Position numbers and translations under genes: made by a program. The notes under the pieces were generated by a model. It was not told the DNA's origin. It was given only the letters and a program-made list of their open reading frames with translations, and did not search any database. Shown one piece after another: positions 4,328 through 22,750 of a DNA stretch of 64,000 nucleotides. The stretch's first letter is position 1; the number at the start of each line of letters is the position of its first letter. This DNA comes from a virus: positions 24,043 through 88,042 of the IMG/VR virus record IMGVR_UViG_3300034022_000278. One strand, given 5' to 3'.

Positions 4328-4481
4328 AGTCAGGTGGCGGAAATATGAGAGACGCAAGAGGTAGAGTTTGGTCTGTAACAGGGATAACTGGTGAGGACAC
4401 ATCTAACAATTTCACGGAGGGTCTAAAAAAGTGAAAGCGGAAAACCTAAGTTACGTGCAGGGGCAGTTCCTGTCCTGACTA
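4328..4481 (+). ncRNA. tRNA-like RNA with ~100-nt multibranch domain replacing the anticodon arm
   Basis: Acceptor AGTCAGG/CCTGACT, D stem GCG/CGC, T stem GCAGG/CCTGT with atypical loop GGCAGTT; same ends as 4133-4203. Confidence 0.6.
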
Positions 4482-4591
4482 CTAATTAAATTAAATAACA
4501 ATGGAATATCTTATAATTGCAATTGTAGTATTTGCAGCATTTATTTTAAGTGAAGTAAATCACTAATTATTAACCATCTAAAACAAAAGTT

Positions 4592-5140: not shown

Positions 5141-5421
5141 GCCATACAAGAGTAAAAACAACTTATAGTATAGAAGGATCATGGGGCAGTACTGAGACTA
5201 AAACTTTGTATTGCCACCATAACCATAGCTGTGATGTAACTACATTTTATGATGAAGATGGTGACGTAACATCTATGTCATTTGCGGACTGGGAGTCAGG
5301 TCATGACTTATGGGACGCTATGCAGAAGTTATGGTTTCCATTTAAGGATGAATGGGGAGAAGAATTAAAAGATGGTGTAGAGCATTACTTTATACCACCT
5401 TGGGAAAATAAAACTAAATAA
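5137..5421 (+). CDS. Hypothetical protein
   Basis: 94-aa ORF, ATGA overlap with previous gene. Confidence 0.75.
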   Translation: MSHTRVKTTYSIEGSWGSTETKTLYCHHNHSCDVTTFYDEDGDVTSMSFADWESGHDLWDAMQKLWFPFKDEWGEELKDGVEHYFIPPWENKTK

Positions 5422-5423
5422 TT

Positions 5424-5702
5424 ATGACAAATAAAAACATTGATAAAGCAATAATGCATTGTTATAGGGAGTTGTTTGCAAATGCAACTCCCGCAGCATC
5501 ATTTGATGAGCTATTAAAGAACTCTACAGTAAATGAAAGAGGGCAAAGAGAAATACCTTTTATGGACTATGAAATAGAAGAGTCTGTCTTTGATGAAATA
5601 GTAGAAGATACTACTAAGCTTTATAAAATCAAACACAAGATTTTTAAGCAATCATTTAAAAATACAATATTATTTGGATGTAGTCCTAAATTTAAAAAAT
5701 AA
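5424..5702 (+). CDS. Hypothetical protein
   Basis: 92-aa ORF in tightly packed array. Confidence 0.75.
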   Translation: MTNKNIDKAIMHCYRELFANATPAASFDELLKNSTVNERGQREIPFMDYEIEESVFDEIVEDTTKLYKIKHKIFKQSFKNTILFGCSPKFKK

Positions 5703-5706
5703 AAAG

Positions 5707-5904
5707 ATGGAAGGAACATTAGTTAAAAAAGGTAAAAAATGGATTGTTAAGTATACTGAAGATGGTAACTTATTAGAAATGGAAGTTGATTCTTATCAAG
5801 CTGATGCTCTTAATGCATCTAAAAACAACCATAAAGTCGTATTTGAACAAATATGGATTAAAGAAAAGAAATGGATAGCATTAATATCATTTAAAACTAT
5901 TTAA
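5707..5904 (+). CDS. Hypothetical protein (likely start MEGTL)
   Basis: Track ORF 5674-5904; ATG at 5707 follows previous stop with A-rich leader. Confidence 0.7.
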   Translation: MEGTLVKKGKKWIVKYTEDGNLLEMEVDSYQADALNASKNNHKVVFEQIWIKEKKWIALISFKTI

Positions 5905-5905
5905 C

Positions 5906-6124
5906 ATGAACAGCAAGACAATTACAATAGAGTTAGAAAACGTTCAACTAAATGTTGGATATTACTTTACTGCAGCGTATGAATCTGATGAACAAGAGTT
6001 AGAAAATATGCATTTAGAATTAATTCACACTGTATCTGGAGATGATATAACTGAATTATTACATCATTATGATGAGAAGATTAGAGAAATAATCTATGAG
6101 CAATTAAATCATTTAAATAATTAA
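5906..6124 (+). CDS. Hypothetical protein
   Basis: 72-aa ORF. Confidence 0.7.
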   Translation: MNSKTITIELENVQLNVGYYFTAAYESDEQELENMHLELIHTVSGDDITELLHHYDEKIREIIYEQLNHLNN

Positions 6125-6127
6125 AAG

Positions 6128-6604
6128 ATGGAAGCAAAATTAATTAAAACAAAAGTTGGATATCATCTTTGGTTAAATCCTGAAACAAAAGAACAACAAC
6201 ATATTGCCTCAGACTGTGAAATAGTAAGTGATAATGGGGCAGATTTAAGAAAGTATAAACTATCCCTCAAAAACTGTCAAGTAATTGAACGTGGTTATGA
6301 TTTGGATGAGTTGGTTAAAGAACAATATCCTATTGATGAACCATCATTTAAAAGAGGGTTTAAATTATCACTTGAGGTAAATTCTGATAAAAGATTTACT
6401 TTAGAAGATATGATTAAATGTTTTAACGCTTCTATAGATGAAGGGTGGGTACGAGCAGATTTTTACATTCAATCACTACAACAAACTGAATGGGATGTTG
6501 AGATAGTTATGGAAGATTCAATTGGAATTGGAGATAAGTACACTCCAAATACTAAACCAAAGTTAGATGCAGATGGTTGCATTATATTAAAACGTAAGAT
6601 ATGA
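6128..6604 (+). CDS. Hypothetical protein
   Basis: 158-aa ORF. Confidence 0.8.
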   Translation: MEAKLIKTKVGYHLWLNPETKEQQHIASDCEIVSDNGADLRKYKLSLKNCQVIERGYDLDELVKEQYPIDEPSFKRGFKLSLEVNSDKRFTLEDMIKCFNASIDEGWVRADFYIQSLQQTEWDVEIVMEDSIGIGDKYTPNTKPKLDADGCIILKRKI

Positions 6605-6726
6605 AACAAAGAATAGCAGACTGGTTATTTAACTTTTGGTATAACAATCATACTCATCATTGGGTTGCATTTGACCCAAATAGTTTAAGAGAAAAATGTA
6701 GATATTGTAAAGTAATTAAAACATAA
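6601..6726 (+). CDS. Small protein with HxH...CxxC motif
   Basis: 41-aa ORF MKQRIADW...HTHHW...KCRYCK; ATGA overlap. Confidence 0.55.
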   Translation: MKQRIADWLFNFWYNNHTHHWVAFDPNSLREKCRYCKVIKT

Positions 6727-6729
6727 GAT

Positions 6730-7038
6730 ATGGAACAAGAACTAAACTTAAATTGTTTTGATTGTAATAAATCATTACAAGATTGTGCTTGTATGGAAGA
6801 TACAATTGATATGAAACAAGAAACACTAGAAGAAGTTGCATTAAGATTATACCCTGAAGAATGGAATTGGAGAGAAAAACGAATATTCAAAGAAGGCGCT
6901 AAATGGCAAGCAGAAAGAATGTATAGTGAGGAAGATATAAAAAATGCATTCCTTGAAGGTTGGGAGTTAAGAGATGGAGAATTAACTTTCCGTAAAGCTA
7001 AGAATAAATGGTTTAAACAATTTAAAAAAAATAGCTAA
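6730..7038 (+). CDS. Hypothetical protein (CxxC...CxC N-terminus, KQETLEE module)
   Basis: 102-aa ORF. Confidence 0.75.
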   Translation: MEQELNLNCFDCNKSLQDCACMEDTIDMKQETLEEVALRLYPEEWNWREKRIFKEGAKWQAERMYSEEDIKNAFLEGWELRDGELTFRKAKNKWFKQFKKNS

Positions 7039-15130: not shown

Positions 15131-16204
15131 ATGGCAAAAATAAAATATTGGGATAAACTCAAGGAAGAGATTGCCAGGGGTAAGTTAGGATTAAACACGG
15201 GTATTCCCTTTAGTGGATTTACTACTCTTAGTAAGCATATTAAGAATATTCAACAAGGTAGATATGATCTAATCTTTGCAGGTACTTCTATCGGTAAAAC
15301 TGCATTTGTAAATAGTACCTATGTTTATGGTGCTATAGAATATCTTCAGAATAATCCTGGGTATGTGCACGATTTAGAGATTATCTACTATTCTTTAGAG
15401 ATTCCTCCGCAAGATCAGATTGCTAAGCATATTGCTTCTTTAATCTGGAAGAACCATGGGATACTAACTTCTATTGATGAAATTAAATCTAAGGGTGACA
15501 TGGAAATATCACCTCAAGTAGAGTTGTTAATAGGGGAATATGAGGTAAAAATGAATGAGATTCAGGATAAGTATCTATTTTATAGAAGTAATTTAAATCC
15601 TGATTTCTTATATAAAGACCTAATGGGGTATGCTGAAAAAAGAGGTACAGTAATACGTGATGACAATGATTTTATCATTGATTATGTTCCTAATAATCCT
15701 TCTTTAATTACCTTAATAATTATTGATCATATTGGTTTAGTAGATCTTGGTAAATACTCTAGTTTAAAAGAAGCTATTGACAAAATCTCTAAGACCTTAG
15801 TGTTCTTTAGGAATAAATTTAACTTTAGTCCAGTAGTAATATCTCAAATAAATAGGGGCTCTGAACAAATGGACAGAAGAGATGGAGATAGTTGGATGCC
15901 AATGCTCAGCGATATTAAAAATACAGGCAATGTAGCAGAGGATTCAAATACTATTATAGGTCTAGCAAGTCCTTTTTATTTAGGAGTAGAGAAATGCCTT
16001 GGATATGACATCGGTAAATTTAGGGATAGATATAGGTTAGCTAAGATTCTGAAAAATCGGGATGGACAAGCACAACTAAATATTAGCTTCCTGTTTATTG
16101 GCGAGTATGGGGGATATTATCAATTACCCAAAGCGGACGAATTAAACGGAAAGCCTGAAGAGCTTAAAAAGATTGATGAATATTATAAAAACAAGAACTT
16201 ATGA
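15131..16204 (+). CDS. dnaB: DnaB-like replicative helicase
   Basis: GTSIGKT Walker A, YSLE, IIIDHIGL Walker B, ISQINR, KNRDG. Confidence 0.9.
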   Translation: MAKIKYWDKLKEEIARGKLGLNTGIPFSGFTTLSKHIKNIQQGRYDLIFAGTSIGKTAFVNSTYVYGAIEYLQNNPGYVHDLEIIYYSLEIPPQDQIAKHIASLIWKNHGILTSIDEIKSKGDMEISPQVELLIGEYEVKMNEIQDKYLFYRSNLNPDFLYKDLMGYAEKRGTVIRDDNDFIIDYVPNNPSLITLIIIDHIGLVDLGKYSSLKEAIDKISKTLVFFRNKFNFSPVVISQINRGSEQMDRRDGDSWMPMLSDIKNTGNVAEDSNTIIGLASPFYLGVEKCLGYDIGKFRDRYRLAKILKNRDGQAQLNISFLFIGEYGGYYQLPKADELNGKPEELKKIDEYYKNKNL

Positions 16205-16497
16205 TAAAAGACAAGTATATTTGGGTAAAAGCTAAGTTAACTGCTCATCCAGCTTTACGAGATTCTAATGAGAGGTTGTATTATAACTATCTACAAGAGA
16301 TAGGGTACGATATTAATAAGCCAACTAAAGAGTTTCTAAAAGATATGGAGAAAAGAGTTATACCTTATATGGATTCTTTTGGGAGAGCTTCTCGTAAAGT
16401 ACAAGAGGAACATCCTCATCTAAGAGGCGCTACTTGGCAGAAAAGAAAGACAGTAAAAGAGGCAGAAATACGCCAAGAAATTAGGGATTTAACTTAA
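16201..16497 (+). CDS. Hypothetical protein
   Basis: 98-aa ORF (LRDSNERL...RASRKVQEEHPHLRG). Confidence 0.75.
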   Translation: MIKDKYIWVKAKLTAHPALRDSNERLYYNYLQEIGYDINKPTKEFLKDMEKRVIPYMDSFGRASRKVQEEHPHLRGATWQKRKTVKEAEIRQEIRDLT

Positions 16498-16543
16498 AAA
16501 TCCTTATCTTTAATAAAGTAAACAATCTAAAAATCAACAATTT

Positions 16544-17218
16544 ATGGGTCAACTCGTGTTTGTCGTTGGAAAAAGCGGCACAGGAAAATCTACCTCATTA
16601 CGGAACCTAAATCCAGAGGAAACAATTATCATTAATACGGATCAAAAAGCGCTTCCGTTTAAACAATTTAACTTAAAGTACAATGAAGAGAATGACAATT
16701 ATGTCAAGACTTCTGATGTGCAAGTAGTAATTGGTACCTTAAAGCGGGCACATGGTAATAAAAAAATCAAAACTGTTATCATCGACACATGGAGTCGTAT
16801 AATGACAGATGCAGTAATGAATCCTTCTTTTCGAGCAGAAAAAGGTTTTGATAAGTATGGCAAATTTGCCGCTAATCAATATGACTTAATTAATATCATT
16901 AATGATAAATTAAGAGAAGATATCATTGTATATTTATTTGCTCATCCAGAAACTCACTATGATGATGGTGGTTTCTCTACAGAAAGAATCGGTGTACAAG
17001 GTAAAATGCTAGAAAGATTCGTTCCTGAAAGCTTTAGTTCTATTGTGTTTTATGCAGAAATTGTAAAGACACCTGGGGCACCAAATCGTCACGTATTTAG
17101 AACCTTAAATTCTGGTACAGATACGTGCAAAACTCCTATTGAAATGTTTGAAGAAGCTCTAGTAGATAATGATCTAGTAGAGGTAAACGCAGTCATAAGA
17201 GAATATTATTCAATTTAA
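16544..17218 (+). CDS. AAA_24/Sak4-like P-loop ATPase
   Basis: GKSGTGKS Walker A, VIIDT Walker B, C-terminal KTP..MF. Confidence 0.85.
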   Translation: MGQLVFVVGKSGTGKSTSLRNLNPEETIIINTDQKALPFKQFNLKYNEENDNYVKTSDVQVVIGTLKRAHGNKKIKTVIIDTWSRIMTDAVMNPSFRAEKGFDKYGKFAANQYDLINIINDKLREDIIVYLFAHPETHYDDGGFSTERIGVQGKMLERFVPESFSSIVFYAEIVKTPGAPNRHVFRTLNSGTDTCKTPIEMFEEALVDNDLVEVNAVIREYYSI

Positions 17219-17243
17219 TAAATAACCAATAAAAAGTAAAACA

Positions 17244-17867
17244 ATGCAAGATTTAATTTGGGACGCAGTTCCGACACAGAGAAAGAAGAAAGAAGAGTCT
17301 TTCTCATTACCAACAATGACAATGTCTGCAATCGCTAAAGTAGGAGCAGGTAGAAAGTTTAGTTTTAATAAAGCAGCGCAAGGTTCTTTAGGAATCGAAG
17401 GGGGAGAAAGAGTTTCTTTCGGTTTTACAGCTGATGGTGCACAAATCTTTATTCGTAAAGTATTTGGAGAAATCGAAGGATTCGGTTTAACTCAATCATG
17501 TACTATTAGTGATAAGAAAACTTACGAGTTTATTGCTAAAAGATTAGGATTAAATACTGAAGTAGAGAATCATTTTGATGTTCTTCCTTTAGCAGGATAT
17601 TCTGAATTAGTTCTTAGAACAGCAGTTGCTGAAGAAGTGATGGAGTTTAATACTGTAGATTTAGGTGAAGTATCTGACGAAGAAGACATGGATGCTGATC
17701 TATCTACTATTCCTGGAACACCTGAAGGAGGAGCTCTTTACGAAATGGCAGACCACACTATGGAAGTAGAAGATGCTTTAGTAGAAGAGACTATCGAAGA
17801 TGAAGTCGATGAAATGCTTGAACTTGAAGAAGACGAAGAAGAGAACGACGAAGAAGGAGTTTGGTAA
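17244..17867 (+). CDS. Hypothetical protein with very acidic C-terminal tail
   Basis: 207 aa; last ~45 aa dominated by D/E, ends in W. Confidence 0.8.
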   Translation: MQDLIWDAVPTQRKKKEESFSLPTMTMSAIAKVGAGRKFSFNKAAQGSLGIEGGERVSFGFTADGAQIFIRKVFGEIEGFGLTQSCTISDKKTYEFIAKRLGLNTEVENHFDVLPLAGYSELVLRTAVAEEVMEFNTVDLGEVSDEEDMDADLSTIPGTPEGGALYEMADHTMEVEDALVEETIEDEVDEMLELEEDEEENDEEGVW

Positions 17868-17915
17868 GAAGTAATTAAGTAAGTAAATAATTAACAATTT
17901 TAAATAATAAACAAT

Positions 17916-18512
17916 ATGATCAATTTAAATGACGCATCATTTGATGCAGCAGAAGGTAAAGCAATTTTCAATGGCGGAAATGCAGGTGTAGCAGAAAATG
18001 TTATGATGACAGTAGAGAAGAAAAAGGCTGATGATAAGCCTAATTCTCCTGATTACAAGTTATCATTTACCGATGCAAATGGTGGAACTTGTAACACAAG
18101 TTTTTGGTATGTAGAAAAAGCTACAGATTACTCTACAGTTGCTGAGCTAATCCAAAAGCAAGGTAAAGTTCTTAAGCATGTTATCCATGCAATTTATGGA
18201 GATGCTTACCAATTTCCTACAGGATTTAACAGCGCTAAAGAATTGTTAGACGGTTGTATGCAACTTATCCGTACTGGATTAGGTACAGGTCTTAAATTCC
18301 GAGTATTTGCTAATTACGGTTCTACTCAAGGAATTAAGGATTATATTCAGCCAAGAAGTTGGGTGCCTTTCTTGGAGCCAATGTCTGTTGCTATCGCTGA
18401 TACTCGCCTAAAAGCAGGTAATATCGATGCAATGGCACGTATTCAAAAAGATTCATTTGTTGCTAGCGGAACTGCTAATGCAAATGATATTGTCGCTGGA
18501 GACGAGTGGTGA
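17916..18512 (+). CDS. Putative single-stranded DNA-binding protein
   Basis: Beta-rich N-terminus, acidic-aromatic C-terminus GDEW; lies between Sak4-like ATPase and primase. Confidence 0.5.
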   Translation: MINLNDASFDAAEGKAIFNGGNAGVAENVMMTVEKKKADDKPNSPDYKLSFTDANGGTCNTSFWYVEKATDYSTVAELIQKQGKVLKHVIHAIYGDAYQFPTGFNSAKELLDGCMQLIRTGLGTGLKFRVFANYGSTQGIKDYIQPRSWVPFLEPMSVAIADTRLKAGNIDAMARIQKDSFVASGTANANDIVAGDEW

Positions 18513-18532
18513 GAAAAAAATAATTAATTTTA

Positions 18533-18566
18533 CTGAGGGGGACACTAATGTCCTCCTCATTTTTTT
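18533..18566 (+). terminator. Rho-independent terminator/attenuator before primase
   Basis: TGAGGGGGACA/TGTCCTCCTCA stem + T7 run directly before the primase ATG. Confidence 0.75.
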
Positions 18567-19571
18567 ATGAAAGAAATCAATCTAAATTCAATAGTATTTA
18601 ATAGTCAGATTACGAGAGAGGACATTCTTAAGCATGTTACGCAAGAAGAAATCTATTCGTTCTATTTGGGAGAAGATATTACACATTTAGGAATATTTCA
18701 CAGTCCTTTACGGGAAGATAATATTCCATCGTTTGCTTTGTATTTTCACAAGGTAAATAGAAACATTCTAATGTTTTATGACTTTGCCACAAAAGATTGT
18801 GGTGACTTTGTAGTATTAGTTATGAGAATGTTTAATGTTGATTATCCTGAAGCTTTAAAGAAAATTACTTTTGATTTAGGACTATCCAATTTTAGTGTAG
18901 ATCTTACTAAGCAAGTGATATCTTATACAAGAATTATTCATAAGGATAAAATTAAATTGGGAATTAAAACAAGACCCTGGAATTATAGAGATAAAGAATT
19001 TTGGAATTCTTTTGGTATTTGTAAAGCTACATTATTAAAATTTAATGTACATCCTATTAGTTATGTGTTTTATAACGACACTGCCGTTAAGGCCCACGAA
19101 CAAGCCTATGCTTATGTGGAAATAAAAGATAATAGAGTAAGTTATAAAATCTATCAACCAACAGAGATTAAAATTAAAAAATGGATTAATAATGCAGATT
19201 ATTCTGTACACCAAGGTTATACACAATTGCCTAAATCTGGTGATATGTTAATTATTACTAAGTCTTTAAAAGATGTTATGAGTATTCACGATTGTTTAGA
19301 TATACCTGCTATAGGCCTACAATCTGAGAGTGTAATGATGAAAGATTCAGTAATGGATGAATATAAATCTAGATTTAAAAAAGTAATTTGTCTATTTGAC
19401 AATGATGAAGCAGGTAAGAAATTATCTAAGAGCTTCACAGAAAAGTATGATATTCCATATTTCTTTGTGCCTGAAATGCCTAAAGTTACAGACTTCAGTG
19501 ATTTAGTTAGAGTAGTAGGTAAGCAAGGAGCTGTGGATATTGTAAAATTAAAAATTAAGAAGTATGAATAG
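18567..19571 (+). CDS. DNA primase (Toprim)
   Basis: SPLREDNIPSF N-terminal region, TKSLKDVM, FDNDEAG, C-terminal DFSD. Confidence 0.88.
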   Translation: MKEINLNSIVFNSQITREDILKHVTQEEIYSFYLGEDITHLGIFHSPLREDNIPSFALYFHKVNRNILMFYDFATKDCGDFVVLVMRMFNVDYPEALKKITFDLGLSNFSVDLTKQVISYTRIIHKDKIKLGIKTRPWNYRDKEFWNSFGICKATLLKFNVHPISYVFYNDTAVKAHEQAYAYVEIKDNRVSYKIYQPTEIKIKKWINNADYSVHQGYTQLPKSGDMLIITKSLKDVMSIHDCLDIPAIGLQSESVMMKDSVMDEYKSRFKKVICLFDNDEAGKKLSKSFTEKYDIPYFFVPEMPKVTDFSDLVRVVGKQGAVDIVKLKIKKYE

Positions 19572-19617
19572 AGCGGACACATTAAGTAAAACTAGTAAAG
19601 ATTTAATGATGAAAGAG
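19564..19617 (+). pseudogene. Orphaned original 5' end of the metallopeptidase-VWA gene
   Basis: Translates MNRADTLSKTSKDLMMKE, aligning with KADSLAQTSKHLMLSE at 20450; similarity ends at the endonuclease insertion. Confidence 0.8.
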
Positions 19618-20427
19618 CAACGATTTAAATTTGTCGTACTTTCTATCTAAATAATAATTAGCATCATTGTAAAGGTAATCAGATATTTTAATTAAATTTT
19701 GTTTACCTTGATATGTTAAAACATGTAATTGAGTAATCTTACAATTTTTAGGATTATATAATTTAGTTTTATTAAGGTAAAGTTCTTTTATTAAAATACT
19801 TTGCACTTTACTTAAAAAATCAAAAGGACCTAACATACTAAAAAGATAATCTTTGTTTATATTATTAGTATAAATACAACCGTCTCCATCAAAATACCCT
19901 CTTATAAAATGATGGTATAAATTTTCGGAAATAGTTGTAGGAAAAGTTAGCGTAGTGCCTTTATTGGGGTAAAGTCCATGAGGCAAAAGATCTTGTATAA
20001 GGTTAGGAGCAGTAATAGAAAGTTTCCACTGTTGCTGTCGATTTCCTAATTTTTTAACAGAAAGAATAGGTCCTGTATAATTTAACACATCTTTAAATTT
20101 TACAAGAATTGGTTTATCTTTTTCTTGTAAACTTATAGATAATACTTTTTTAGTTACATTACCATCTGCATATAACAGCCCTAAAAAATAAGCTTTTTCC
20201 TCAGTATTAATTATACTAAAAAAATCTTGATTGTGGGAATACTTAGTAGAAGATTGGGATAATGTTCTTATTTGAGTATTAGATTTTTTAATAATTGAAT
20301 AAATAGTTTGAGGAGTACAATTACATAATTTTGCTATTACATAACAAGATTTGCCCGAAATATAGGAATCTATAATTTCTAATTTTGTCATAGGTAATTT
20401 GTACCCTTTATTCTGTTTTATAACCAT
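19603..20427 (-). mobile_element. Free-standing LAGLIDADG homing endonuclease with N-terminal HTH
   Basis: AYFLGLLYADGN and FIRGYFDGDG motifs; antisense to all neighbours; no intron core recognisable. Confidence 0.9.
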
Positions 20428-20431
20428 AGTA

Positions 20432-20439
20432 CAAATATA
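20432..20439 (-). promoter_or_regulatory. Bacteroidota sigma-A type -7 element (TATATTTG) for the endonuclease
   Basis: TAnnTTTG 4 nt upstream of the ATG at 20427, implying an essentially leaderless mRNA. Confidence 0.6.
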
Positions 20440-20449
20440 ATATTATAAT

Positions 20450-22750
20450 ATGAATATACAAACCAAAGCTGATAGTTTAGCACAAACTTCCAAGCATCTT
20501 ATGCTTTCCGAGCCCTATTACGGGTTCTTTCTCATTTTATTAAATAAATTATGGTACACAAAAGTACCCACGGCTGGCGTTGGTAAACAAGGAATAAATT
20601 ATCAGCTAGTCATTAATCCTACTTTTTGGGAAGAGTTATCGGAAGACCATAGATTAGGCCTTCTAAAACATGAGCTCAATTAGGGCTCCTTATACAGTAA
20701 TGTATATGTAAAATGTCTTAAATTGACGGGGACCCCCTAAAGTTTTATCTACTAAGCATGCACCGTGAGGTAGTATGTGGCTGACTTAATTACTCAGGTA
20801 TAGTAAAAAAGATAAAAATGTCCGAATGGGAAATCCGCAGCCAAATTTCTTGGTTATATGATTTATTTTTGGTATATTGCAGTATAAATACTTACATATA
20901 TGAAAACAGAAATAGAACAAAAAGTAATTGATTATTATATTACTGATAAGTTATCAGGTAAAAAGATTGCGAGTTTATTACAAATAAATGTAAAAACAGT
21001 TTTTGCAATTTTAAAAAGAAATAATGTAAAATCAAGGACTTTGTCTGAATCAACAATGAAATACACTTGTCAAGATGATTTTTTTAATGTTATAAACACA
21101 GAAAAGAAAGCATATTGGCTAGGAGTACTATTTGCTGATGGTAATATTACAAAAAAAGCAAGTAAATCGGGACAAATTATTTTTTCATCAAAAGATAAAG
21201 AATGGGTAGAACTATTTTTATTAGATGTTGGCTCAAATAATTCCCCCAATTGTGAATATCATAAATTATTTAAAAAATATATATGGAAAGCTCAGATAAC
21301 TTCTGCGCAAATGTATGATGATTTAAATAACTTAGGATGTACACCAGCTAAAACTAAAACAATTAGAGTGCCTATATTAAATGATGCATTAATGCACCAC
21401 TTTATTAGAGGATATTTTGATGGTGATGGTACAGTTGGTGTTTATAAAAATCTAAAAAATAATGATTGGAAAATTATAAAGTCAGGTTTTTGTTCGGGCT
21501 CACAAGAATTTATTATTGACGTATTAAGTATATTACCAGTAAAAAATAAAACTATTAAACATAGTAAAGAATGTTATATTACACAACATTCCTTGCAAGA
21601 CACTTTTAATCTATTTGGTTACATGTATAAAGATTGTACTACATGTTTAGAAAGAAAGAGACAAGTTTTTATTAATTACTTAGACACATATAAACCAAGA
21701 AAGAGGTTCAACGACTACAATAGACCATCCTAATAAGGATGAAGGTATAGTCTGATCTCATGTGAAAGCATGAGTTAACAAAAATGTTTGCATATTGCTT
21801 TTGGTCACTTAAGTGCTGTATTTAAATTTAGTGATAGAAAATTAGCTAATATAGCTATGGATATGGAGATTAATCAATATATTATTCCTGAATGGTTACC
21901 TAAAGGAGGCATTGATATTGACAAATATCCAGAATTAAATTTAGACAGAAAAGCAGGTTGTAGATATTACTATGACAAGCTTAAGCAAGCTAAGGATAAA
22001 AAAGATCAAACTGGTACTAGTGGCAGCGATGCATTTGATAGACTGTGCGATCAAATGGACGGTGACGGTGAAGGCCTACCTGACCATAGCACATGGGACG
22101 AGTTCGAAGATTTATCTGAGGCAGAACAAAAGCTAATAGAAAAGCAAACGCAAAGACTCTTAGGCACTGCTAAAGAACAGACTTTAAAGAAGCAAGGTAA
22201 TGTTCCTAATGAGATGAATGATCTAATTCAATTAGATGTAATATTACCCCCAAAATTTGATTGGAAGGGATATATTAGAAGGTTTACTGGAATTAGCACA
22301 AAGGTGTTTACTAAGAAGATACGCAGAAAAGAGAATAAAAGATACGAAGGTAATCCTGGTCTTAAAATTAAAATGAGACAAAAGATGCTATTAGCTATCG
22401 ATACCTCTGGATCTGTTAGTACTCAAGAGCTTGGAGAATTTATGAATGAAATATATCATATTTACAAAGCAGGTGTAGAAATTACTATTGTTCAATGTGA
22501 TACTGAAATTCACAGTATTGAAGATTACAAAGGCAAGTTTGAATTAAAAATATCTGGTAGAGGTGGGACAGAATTTGACCCCGTATTAGATTATTTTGAA
22601 AAAAATACACAATTTACTAGTTTAATATATTTCACTGATGGTGAATGTTATACTAATAAAAAGCCTTCAAAGAAAGTATTATGGGTATTGTCTGAACAAT
22701 CAACTATGAATGAAGCCCTTCCTGGGAAAGTAATAAAATTAGAACTTTAA
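20450..22750 (+). CDS. Metallopeptidase (DUF2201-like)-VWA protein, spliced: join(20450..20676,21787..22750), 396 aa
   Basis: Splicing restores KHELLHIAFGH (HExxH); MIDAS DTSGS, GRGGT, FTDG. Confidence 0.9.
20677..21786 (+). mobile_element. Group I self-splicing intron
   Basis: P1 GAGCT/GGCTC with U-G at the 5' splice site, omega-G at 21786; core motifs AAATTGACGGGG, AATCCGCAGC, TCAACGACTA, GGTATAGTCT; removal restores frame. Confidence 0.92.
20900..21733 (+). CDS. Intron-encoded LAGLIDADG homing endonuclease
   Basis: AYWLGVLFADGN and FIRGYFDGDG; 3' end runs into the intron core. Confidence 0.92.
   Translation: MKTEIEQKVIDYYITDKLSGKKIASLLQINVKTVFAILKRNNVKSRTLSESTMKYTCQDDFFNVINTEKKAYWLGVLFADGNITKKASKSGQIIFSSKDKEWVELFLLDVGSNNSPNCEYHKLFKKYIWKAQITSAQMYDDLNNLGCTPAKTKTIRVPILNDALMHHFIRGYFDGDGTVGVYKNLKNNDWKIIKSGFCSGSQEFIIDVLSILPVKNKTIKHSKECYITQHSLQDTFNLFGYMYKDCTTCLERKRQVFINYLDTYKPRKRFNDYNRPS

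Follow-up and report, generated by a model that had tools for sequence, protein, structure and literature searches.

Two groups of fungal elements are the closest described systems to the one reported here. In the yeasts Torulaspora and Lachancea, WHO elements are endonuclease cassettes that replace the 3′ end at FBA1, and the fragment left over from the resident gene has been called an essential homology region (Coughlan et al., PMC7282813). In fungal mitochondria, mORFs bring a foreign C-terminus for the gene in which they sit, as in atp6 of Allomyces macrogynus and in atp6, atp9, cox2, and nad3 of Glomus sp. (PMC3630166). Another mORF comes from Tremella fuciformis (PMC7315562); its "N-terminal duplication" is the start of a downstream exon, so it also belongs to the type that replaces a 3′ part. 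Homing endonucleases usually avoid harming their hosts by residing in introns, inteins, or intergenic sites. A fourth way of sparing the host is to replace one end of a gene in the DNA itself, and the examples described so far concern 3′ ends, in the mitochondria of fungi and the nuclei of yeasts. Here we describe a locus in a lake-water crAss-like phage, within a stretch of 64,000 nucleotides (nt) of IMGVR_UViG_3300034022_000278 (this whole stretch is called the window), in which the arrangement appears mirrored at a 5′ end. An insert of 895 bp in this window is probably a mobile end-replacing homing cassette, made of an antisense LAGLIDADG gene, a spacer of 22 nt, and a new beginning for the invaded gene, which consists of an ATG and about 20 recoded codons. 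The product of that gene is a putative DUF2201_N metallopeptidase with a DUF2201 vWA-like part.

The insert is delimited by comparison with an allele that lacks it. A search with the primase retrieved L081 from IMG/VR, in which the primase stop codon is overlapped by the start of the target gene, MNRADTLSKTSKDLMMKEPYYGFF...HELLHIAFGH, with neither endonuclease nor intron. The initial annotation of the window had predicted an endonuclease-free allele with MNRADTLSKTSKDLMMKE-PYYG contiguous after the primase, and this is exactly what L081 contains directly downstream of its primase. By blastn, positions 13 to 4404 of L081 correspond to 15230 to 19618 of the window and positions 4401 to 4564 to 20510 to 20673. 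Nucleotide identity is 97 to 100% in every 200-nt bin between 16230 and 19618 (about 99% over 3.4 kb), homology halts at 19618, and it restarts at 20510, where the next 164 nt contain one difference. The borders are ambiguous by four nucleotides, GAGC being present at both 19615 to 19618 and 20510 to 20513. Placed between these two points, and with GAGC assignable to either flank, the insert is a clean 895 bp. The features of the locus, in window coordinates, are the following.

19618 to 20512, unstranded: inserted cassette, 895 bp (blastn against L081; a contig of run X5 joins 19614 to 20510)
19564 to 19617, + strand: stump, the displaced native 5′ end of the DUF2201_N/vWA gene, 18 codons, MNRADTLSKTSKDLMMKE (54 of 54 nt as in the L081 gene start)
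19603 to 20427, − strand: single-chain LAGLIDADG homing endonuclease gene with an N-terminal helix-turn-helix (HTH), 274 amino acids (Pfam, motifs, AlphaFold/Foldseek, dN/dS, the ratio of nonsynonymous to synonymous substitution rates)
20428 to 20449, unstranded: 22-nt spacer between two divergent start codons (spacer alignment of 11 carriers)
20450 to 20512, + strand: substitute recoded 5′ end, MNIQTKADSLAQTSKHLMLSE, in frame with PYYGFF (nucleotide comparisons, codon classes)
20450 to 20676, + strand: exon 1 of the DUF2201_N/vWA (HExxH) gene (from 20510, 163 of 164 nt as in L081)
18567 to 19571, + strand: DNA primase gene, the upstream neighbor (open reading frame [ORF] list; Pfam Toprim_2, 1e-5; 98.8% amino acid identity to L081)
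20677 to 21786, + strand: intron-like insert that interrupts the HExxH motif and bears another LAGLIDADG gene, outside the cassette (absent from L081)
21787 to 22750, + strand: exon 2 of the DUF2201_N/vWA gene (Pfam DUF2201, 7.8e-18)

The primase, the remnant with its ATG, the antisense LAGLIDADG gene, and the restart at 20450 were thus all found where the initial annotation had placed them. The ATG of the stump at 19564 overlaps the primase stop codon, and MNRADTLSKTSKDLMMKE is followed by QRFKFVVLSI and a stop, which makes a mini-ORF of 28 amino acids ending at 19650. In empty alleles the ATG of the target gene overlaps the upstream stop codon in the same manner; in filled alleles this coupling serves only the mini-ORF. 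The stump also supplies, as the antisense of its end, the last four codons and the stop codon of the endonuclease gene (19603 to 19617), and only 70 nt of the 895-bp cassette lie outside the endonuclease ORF.

Independent reads bear on both alleles. In an independent lake-water run (X5), not flagged as a possible source of the window, one contig covers positions 18900 to 19614 without a difference and then jumps to 20510; its 27 letters on the far side fall below the 31 that we required of read-contig joints, and the joint is weak when taken alone. Other X5 contigs cover the interior of the endonuclease gene, which fits a single population harboring the two alleles. The 895-bp joint was not found in runs X1, X4, and X6, of which X4 and X6 have uncovered bins. 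Contig ends from X1 and X6, which belong to other phages of the same or similar waters, carry native heads (...SKTGKDLMLK and ...SKTAKDLMLK) joined directly to the sequence from 20510 onward; therefore, several empty-allele lineages co-occur with the carrier. The insertion is as precise in two other carriers, L143 and L148: compared with the empty allele L073, their homology breaks off at base 5829 of L073 and continues from base 5830. A blastn search of deposited phage genomes yielded no close relative of the locus, with 1 to 4% of the query covered. That the cassette would have reached the window recently rests on the perfect stump and the 99% identical flanks.

The two gene starts in the window are homologous, as had been proposed from their translations, and their resemblance is not fortuitous: the stump is the L081 gene start to the letter, and the substitute start is closer to the starts of other carriers than to its own stump. 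Only 33 of 63 aligned nt are identical between the substitute start and the stump, compared with 45 to 50 of 63 to 64 nt in the heads of eight carriers from L142 to L152, 40 of 63 in L238, and 56 of 63 in L002. One search for the target gene kept the best 80 of its 578 relatives; among all loci retrieved, codons were counted in 106 non-duplicate empty loci and 17 filled loci, with the duplicates L082, L083, L084, L095, L140, and L141 left out and L002 treated separately. A short native head, ending K[DE]L[ML][LM][KRQ]E, is present in the 106 empty loci, and a long recoded head in all 17 filled ones, the difference of three codons in length being common to all carriers. At codon −7, serine is encoded by AGY in all 65 of the empty loci with serine there and by TCN in all 13 such filled loci. 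Codon −2 is CTT or CTC in 6 of 106 empty and 17 of 17 filled loci, codon −1 is K, R, or Q in 106 of 106 empty loci and S, A, T, V, or L in 16 of 17 filled ones, and codon −5 is D or E in 102 of 106 empty loci and N, T, A, or H in 16 of 17 filled ones. To the right of the junction, both allele classes have GAGCCCTATTA(C/T)GG, the kind of conserved stretch that a homing enzyme would target.

The same layout recurs in other phages. We know of 17 carriers: the window, L142 to L155, L237, and L238. A search of IMG/VR with the endonuclease protein retrieved 14 contigs, L142 to L155, at 71 to 74% identity, and a metagenome scan with the endonuclease added only L237 and L238, at 57 to 58%. When IMG/VR was scanned with an alignment of the family, identity dropped from 71% straight to 41%; the protein database contained a graded series of endonucleases down to 48%, including an identical protein (P0001) on four contigs and distant relatives (P0009 to P0026) at 54 to 67%. 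In deposited phage genomes, tblastn matched 158 records, all below 60% identity. An upstream gene, the stump, the antisense endonuclease, the spacer, and the long start follow one another in this order in 15 of the 17 carriers. In L142 to L155 the upstream gene is not the primase but codes for a protein of 133 amino acids, and the head has 21 codons, MN[IVM]xxKxxSL..LMLxE, joined to P[YF]YG. The stump reads MDKVQSLSKASKDLMLK in L142, with close variants in L143 and L146 to L148, MDKQQSLSKTGKELMLK in L144 and L145, and MKNREDSLAKTSKDLMLKEP in L149. It is cut to 9 or 10 codons in L150 and L151 (MDKVQSLSK) and in L152 to L155 (MMD[KR]QQSLSK), so that a further 24 nt have been lost in L150 to L155. 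In the four lineages with empty kin of this sort, stumps match the nearest empty kin: that of the window is identical to L081 and that of L149 to L058 to L062, those of L144 and L145 resemble L072, and those of L152 to L155 resemble L063, L065, and L067.

The left end of the cassette has a history of its own. The wider endonuclease family ends in ...RKYDKF[FK]S[IL] and a stop codon; the endonuclease of the window ends in ...DKFKSL followed by LFHH and a stop, both read from the stump. In L142 to L148 the gene is truncated by a further four codons. Its end lies in the stump there too, as in all of L142 to L155 except L149, which has its own stop codon. Because the C-termini differ among the window, L142 to L148, and L149, the left junction must have been remodeled by small deletions. 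A single junction, TTGAAA/CTTA (the slash marks the joint), is identical in five different stump sequences. An older decayed stump was sought in the 15 nt beside the left junction of the window (GAGCAACGATTTAAA) and was rejected, the comparison by eye with the stump of the L142 type being unconvincing. At the opposite end, the 22-nt spacer is nearly invariant in the 11 carriers aligned, including L237 and L238, whose endonucleases are just 56 to 58% identical to that of the window.

To follow the cassette across host lineages, a FastTree phylogeny was made from the target protein minus its first 21 residues (132 rows, 14 carriers included; the second loci L082, L083, L084, L095, L140, and L141 were omitted, together with six rows covered to less than 60%, among them L081, L146, L153, and L237). 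The 14 carriers fall in six places on this tree, each among empty kin, which amounts to at least six gains or losses. The endonucleases of L143 and L144 share 99.6% of their amino acids and the host proteins 81.9%; the figures are 97.4% and 87.6% for L143 and L147, and 97.8% and 81.9% for L144 and L147. The cassette moves horizontally, because the endonucleases are 97 to 99.6% identical where the host proteins are just 82 to 88% identical. At the nucleotide level, identity between L143 and L144 is about 70% across the upstream gene. It rises to 96 to 100% at the left junction, stays there over the endonuclease gene, the spacer, and some 36 nt of the head, and is 86 to 88% thereafter. From this profile it follows that the stump is resident and that what travels is the endonuclease with the spacer and most, if not all, of the head. 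The recurrence of the layout in 14 further contigs, the consistent recoding, and the discordant endonuclease and host trees support the view taken in the initial annotation, that an endonuclease with a foreign 5′ gene piece sits in coding sequence without splicing.

The encoded protein has the attributes of a functional homing enzyme. Pfam called LAGLIDADG_3 (9.2e-9, in two stretches) and HTH_28 (1.4e-5) and no other domain. The two motifs of the single chain, LGLLYADGN and FIRGYFDGDGC, are invariant in 26 relatives, as are D88, D180, and D182. The AlphaFold model (pLDDT 88.5) has the pseudo-dimeric alpha-beta-beta-alpha-beta-beta-alpha fold, and its top Foldseek matches, at probability 1.00, are I-AniI (3eh8, E 3.7e-8), I-Tsp061I (2dch), I-SceI (3oor), and I-OnuI entries; a profile search against PDB sequences also found 2dch (E 2.4e-6). 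The ORF is intact in all 17 carriers. Values of dN/dS are 0.06 to 0.22 among the window and L142 to L152 (0.16 to 0.20 for the window against L142, L149, and L143) and 0.33 to 0.44 in two comparisons involving L237 or L238. Judged by these ratios, the endonuclease is under purifying selection, and considering the predicted fold, it is likely a working enzyme.

On the model published for WHO elements (PMC7282813), the following course of events would account for these alleles. During coinfection, the enzyme would cut an empty DUF2201_N/vWA allele at or near the K/E-PYYG junction (AAA/GAGCCC). The right break end would pair with the gene body of the filled allele and the left break end with its stump and upstream gene, and repair would copy the endonuclease gene, the spacer, and the substitute, presumably resistant start into the recipient. 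The recipient gene would stay full-length, its diverged head would no longer match the target, and its own head would be pushed upstream as a dead stump, which would provide the stop codon of the endonuclease and act as left homology arm when the cassette homes again. We infer the cut site, the resistance of the recoded head, the destruction of the target site, the role of the stump as homology arm, and expression from the comparison of alleles. LAGLIDADG enzymes leave 3′ overhangs of 4 nt, and the four bases at the center of the site may be marked by the GAGC(C) of 4 to 5 nt that the window and L149 have at both ends of the cassette.

The serious rival, although we consider it unlikely, is an ordinary endonuclease between genes, next to which stumps arose by accident. 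The gene would be of the ordinary T4 Seg/Mob type (SegB is reportedly an example of such T4-like free-standing homing endonucleases), the long head would be an old allele class that was co-converted with it, and the stumps would be accidents of illegitimate joining. Several observations agree with this and weigh against an end-replacing cassette. L237 and L238 have the primase, the endonuclease, and the long head without any stump, hence the stump would have to be dispensable or prone to deletion, and the head of L237 is native-like at codons −5 (E) and −1 (R). Four types of left junction occur (after GAG(C) in the window, GAGCC in L149, AAA in L142 to L148, and SLSK in L150 to L155), which calls for secondary deletions or separate events. 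In L002/L083 (IMGVR_UViG_3300032053_000417; start at position 5772 of L002), a head of the long type, MNTQNKADSLARTSKNLMLSE, lies directly after a small upstream gene with neither endonuclease, spacer, nor stump. This locus may be a resistant empty allele, from a lineage that retained the resistant head after loss of the endonuclease, or it may be the ancestral source of the substitute head or a relative of that source. The initial annotation had named a long start without endonuclease, next to a separate mini-ORF, as the finding that would speak against it; L002/L083 has such a start, of the MNTQNK type, and no mini-ORF. The upstream neighbor, moreover, varies by lineage (the primase or the 133-amino-acid gene), as the intergenic explanation would allow. 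Other points also count against the cassette. The tract of near identity between L143 and L144 ends inside the head, so their exchange may have been one between two filled alleles and not a fresh invasion. The endonuclease of the window is 70.5 to 75% identical to those of the other carriers, and since the nearest is only about 75% identical, the donor of the window is unsampled. Finally, TAnnTTTG, the motif of the promoter that the cassette had been thought to carry, is not enriched (90 matches in the window, 97.9 expected by chance), and this part of the initial annotation was not borne out.

We nevertheless favor an end-replacing cassette over an intergenic endonuclease. The stump is kept in 15 of the 17 carriers, and independent illegitimate events would not reproduce the TTGAAA/CTTA joint in five stump sequences; the window has a stump though its upstream gene is that of its empty kin; and the spacer and the first 36 nt or so of the head travelled with the endonuclease in the recent transfer between L143 and L144. 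It is highly improbable that the insert is a self-splicing intron with an antisense endonuclease, in which splicing would connect MNRADTLSKTSKDLMMKE with PYYG and the MNIQTK stretch would have no significance. The 70 nt outside the ORF are too few for a ribozyme core, an in-frame ATG and about 20 homologous codons precede the junction in all 17 carriers, the spliced product of L150 to L155, with stumps of 9 or 10 codons, would lack conserved residues, and an upstream "exon" is missing altogether from L237 and L238. The idea draws what support it has from the true intron-like insert that interrupts this gene 165 bp farther downstream and encodes a related endonuclease; an Rfam scan of 19000 to 22500 (E ≤ 1) gave no match, a blank that says little, since it also missed the intron-like insert at 20677 to 21786. 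An assembly chimera, or a tandem duplication that diverged in situ without any mobile element, is scarcely credible. In its favor, the sequence is metagenome-derived and the two heads are direct repeats, but all sampled words of the stretch are present in three runs, the identical endonuclease protein is on four contigs, and the 16 other carriers are in separate contigs. The change from AGY to TCN serine codons and the three-codon length difference are found in all carriers, and a recent duplication diverging in situ would not give a stump with 54 of 54 nt as in L081 next to a working copy with 33 of 63.

A cassette that replaces the 5′ end of a gene must come with its own start codon and initiation context. 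The near invariance of the spacer fits a supplied initiation context, and it is the only hint of a regulatory function. TAnnTTTG sites in the element are at 20326 and 20380 (+ strand) and at 20432 (− strand), the last being TATATTTG on the minus strand of the spacer (20432 to 20439). A minus-strand pair for the endonuclease, with TTTG at −33 and TAnnTTTG at −7, would follow the Bacteroides promoter consensus, but the −33 part is by eye not conserved in L143 and L144, and the pair is at most a hypothesis. In the RNA run X24, a fraction of 0.09 of the sampled words of the stretch was present. A more ambitious version, a phage-borne class of its own in which every piece works (the stump as left arm and stop codon, the spacer and the three extra codons as divergent initiation and promoter signals for both genes, and the hypervariable codons −1 and −5 as the record of an arms race of target alleles with endonuclease specificities, as proposed for WHO elements), is conceivable, but we regard it as rather doubtful.

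The gene invaded by the cassette has attracted other insertions. Exon 1 ends in ...CATGAGCT and exon 2 starts with TTTGCAT, which restores HELLH across the intron-like insert; the Pfam match of exon 1 ends at position 68 of DUF2201_N and that of exon 2 covers positions 69 to 236. The insert harbors a second LAGLIDADG gene (20900 to 21733, + strand, 277 amino acids), 39% identical to the cassette endonuclease. It is absent from L081 and from a contig of run X5 (which joins 20673 to 21788, with ATTA between), whereas L140/L003 and L102 have it in the identical position. The adjoining exon codons are recoded with respect to L081 (GAGCTT instead of GAATTA), and the first 165 nt or so of the insert match DNA of Staphylococcus, Enterococcus, and Bacillus phages at 70 to 76%. 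In L145 (reverse complement, gene end at 5278), the gene ends in ...LPGKVIKLEL and is followed by a 46-nt gap and a GIY-YIG-like ORF of 246 amino acids in the stretch 5279 to 6065; this ORF ends in ...KCKGKVIKLEL, with its last eight residues in different codons, and the next gene comes directly after it. It looks like a fungal-type cassette that replaces the 3′ end, located at the opposite terminus of the target gene. In L144, L150, and L151 (reverse complement, about +310 to +1385), a sense-strand LAGLIDADG gene of 275 amino acids splits the target gene at ...VAMD/MEINQY, and in L142 (reverse complement, 6005 to 6879) another LAGLIDADG gene comes after a truncated C-terminus. Considering these insertions in relatives, the target gene is a hotspot with at least four insertion sites. 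Upstream of the primase, the window also contains a sharp mosaic breakpoint with respect to L081 near 16230, with 65 to 75% identity before it (15230 to 16229, in 200-nt bins) and 97 to 100% after it.

The locus offers filled alleles, empty alleles, and one long-headed allele without endonuclease, which may be a resistant empty one, together with 17 carriers in at least six host positions and recent transfers between lineages. With a predicted target of only about 22 bp around AAA/GAGCCC, it lends itself directly to testing, and enzymes of this family for which a natural target and a naturally resistant variant are known would be useful starting points for studies of specificity. The cassette would explain the two deep codon classes at the N-terminus of the target gene, and it carries a warning for annotation, since short "orphan" ORFs beside endonuclease genes can be displaced gene heads. 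If every piece works as outlined above, then, with the intron-borne endonuclease 165 bp downstream and the GIY-YIG 3′ cassette of L145, three nonlethal strategies of invasion could be compared in one gene.

Among phage systems, the free-standing Seg and Mob endonucleases of T4-like phages also spread by double-strand-break repair with co-conversion of flanks, and promoters of neighboring genes can lie within or beside their genes (PMC2988022). They differ in being GIY-YIG and HNH enzymes and not LAGLIDADG ones, and in lying between genes or splitting a gene into two polypeptides, as with mobE/nrdA in Aeh1 and mobA/gene 60 (PMC2988022); in the available part of that review, the word stem "duplicat" is absent and no duplication or replacement of a gene end is described. 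L237 and L238 resemble the simple intergenic state, with the endonuclease between intact genes and no duplicate of the target; the window has the 18-codon duplicate of the head. The intron-borne endonuclease of the window itself (20900 to 21733) is of the same family, has the same target gene, and shows the same presence/absence polymorphism against L081, but its frame is restored by RNA splicing, whereas the cassette restores it at the DNA level with a new head.

Fungal mORFs are more similar in outcome. They too are LAGLIDADG or GIY-YIG ORFs that entered a protein-coding gene along with a second, diverged version of one gene end, where the native end matches close relatives and the inserted end is divergent in nucleotides and conserved in protein (PMC3630166, PMC7315562). 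Allomyces atp6, cited as a precedent in the initial annotation, is indeed a 3′-end replacement by an endonuclease cassette (PMC3630166). In mORFs, however, the 3′ end is replaced and the ORF is often fused in frame on the strand of the host gene, while here it is the 5′ end, the opposite strand, and a phage.

WHO elements are a closer published model than Allomyces atp6. In both the yeast and the phage elements, the endonuclease gene is accompanied on its moves by a resistant version (in our case, presumably so) of one target-gene end, and that end is replaced by homing with no need for splicing (PMC7282813). In both, the resident end is displaced as a fragment that may decay and that serves, or here would serve, as a homology arm, sensitive and resistant alleles form classes (here, classes with consistent sequence differences), and the replaced end and the rest of the gene have discordant phylogenies (PMC7282813). 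The differences are that the 3′ end is replaced in yeast and the 5′ end here, that our endonuclease gene is antisense and divergent to the target gene, and that WHO proteins are intein-zinc finger fusions whose cleavage was demonstrated experimentally (PMC7282813), whereas ours is a plain HTH and double-LAGLIDADG protein with predicted cleavage activity. WHO elements are nuclear and ours belongs to a phage, and no tandem clusters of old elements were seen here. Our literature search, in which subscription journals were mostly outside coverage, found neither a phage case nor a 5′-end case of an end-replacing cassette, in line with the suspicion voiced in the initial annotation that an inverted, 5′-end-replacing version in a phage had not been described. 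Since it is the 5′ end that is replaced, the cassette is a mirror-image variant of the described 3′-end families and not a member of them, and we rate as new its 5′ position, its antisense divergent arrangement, and its phage setting.

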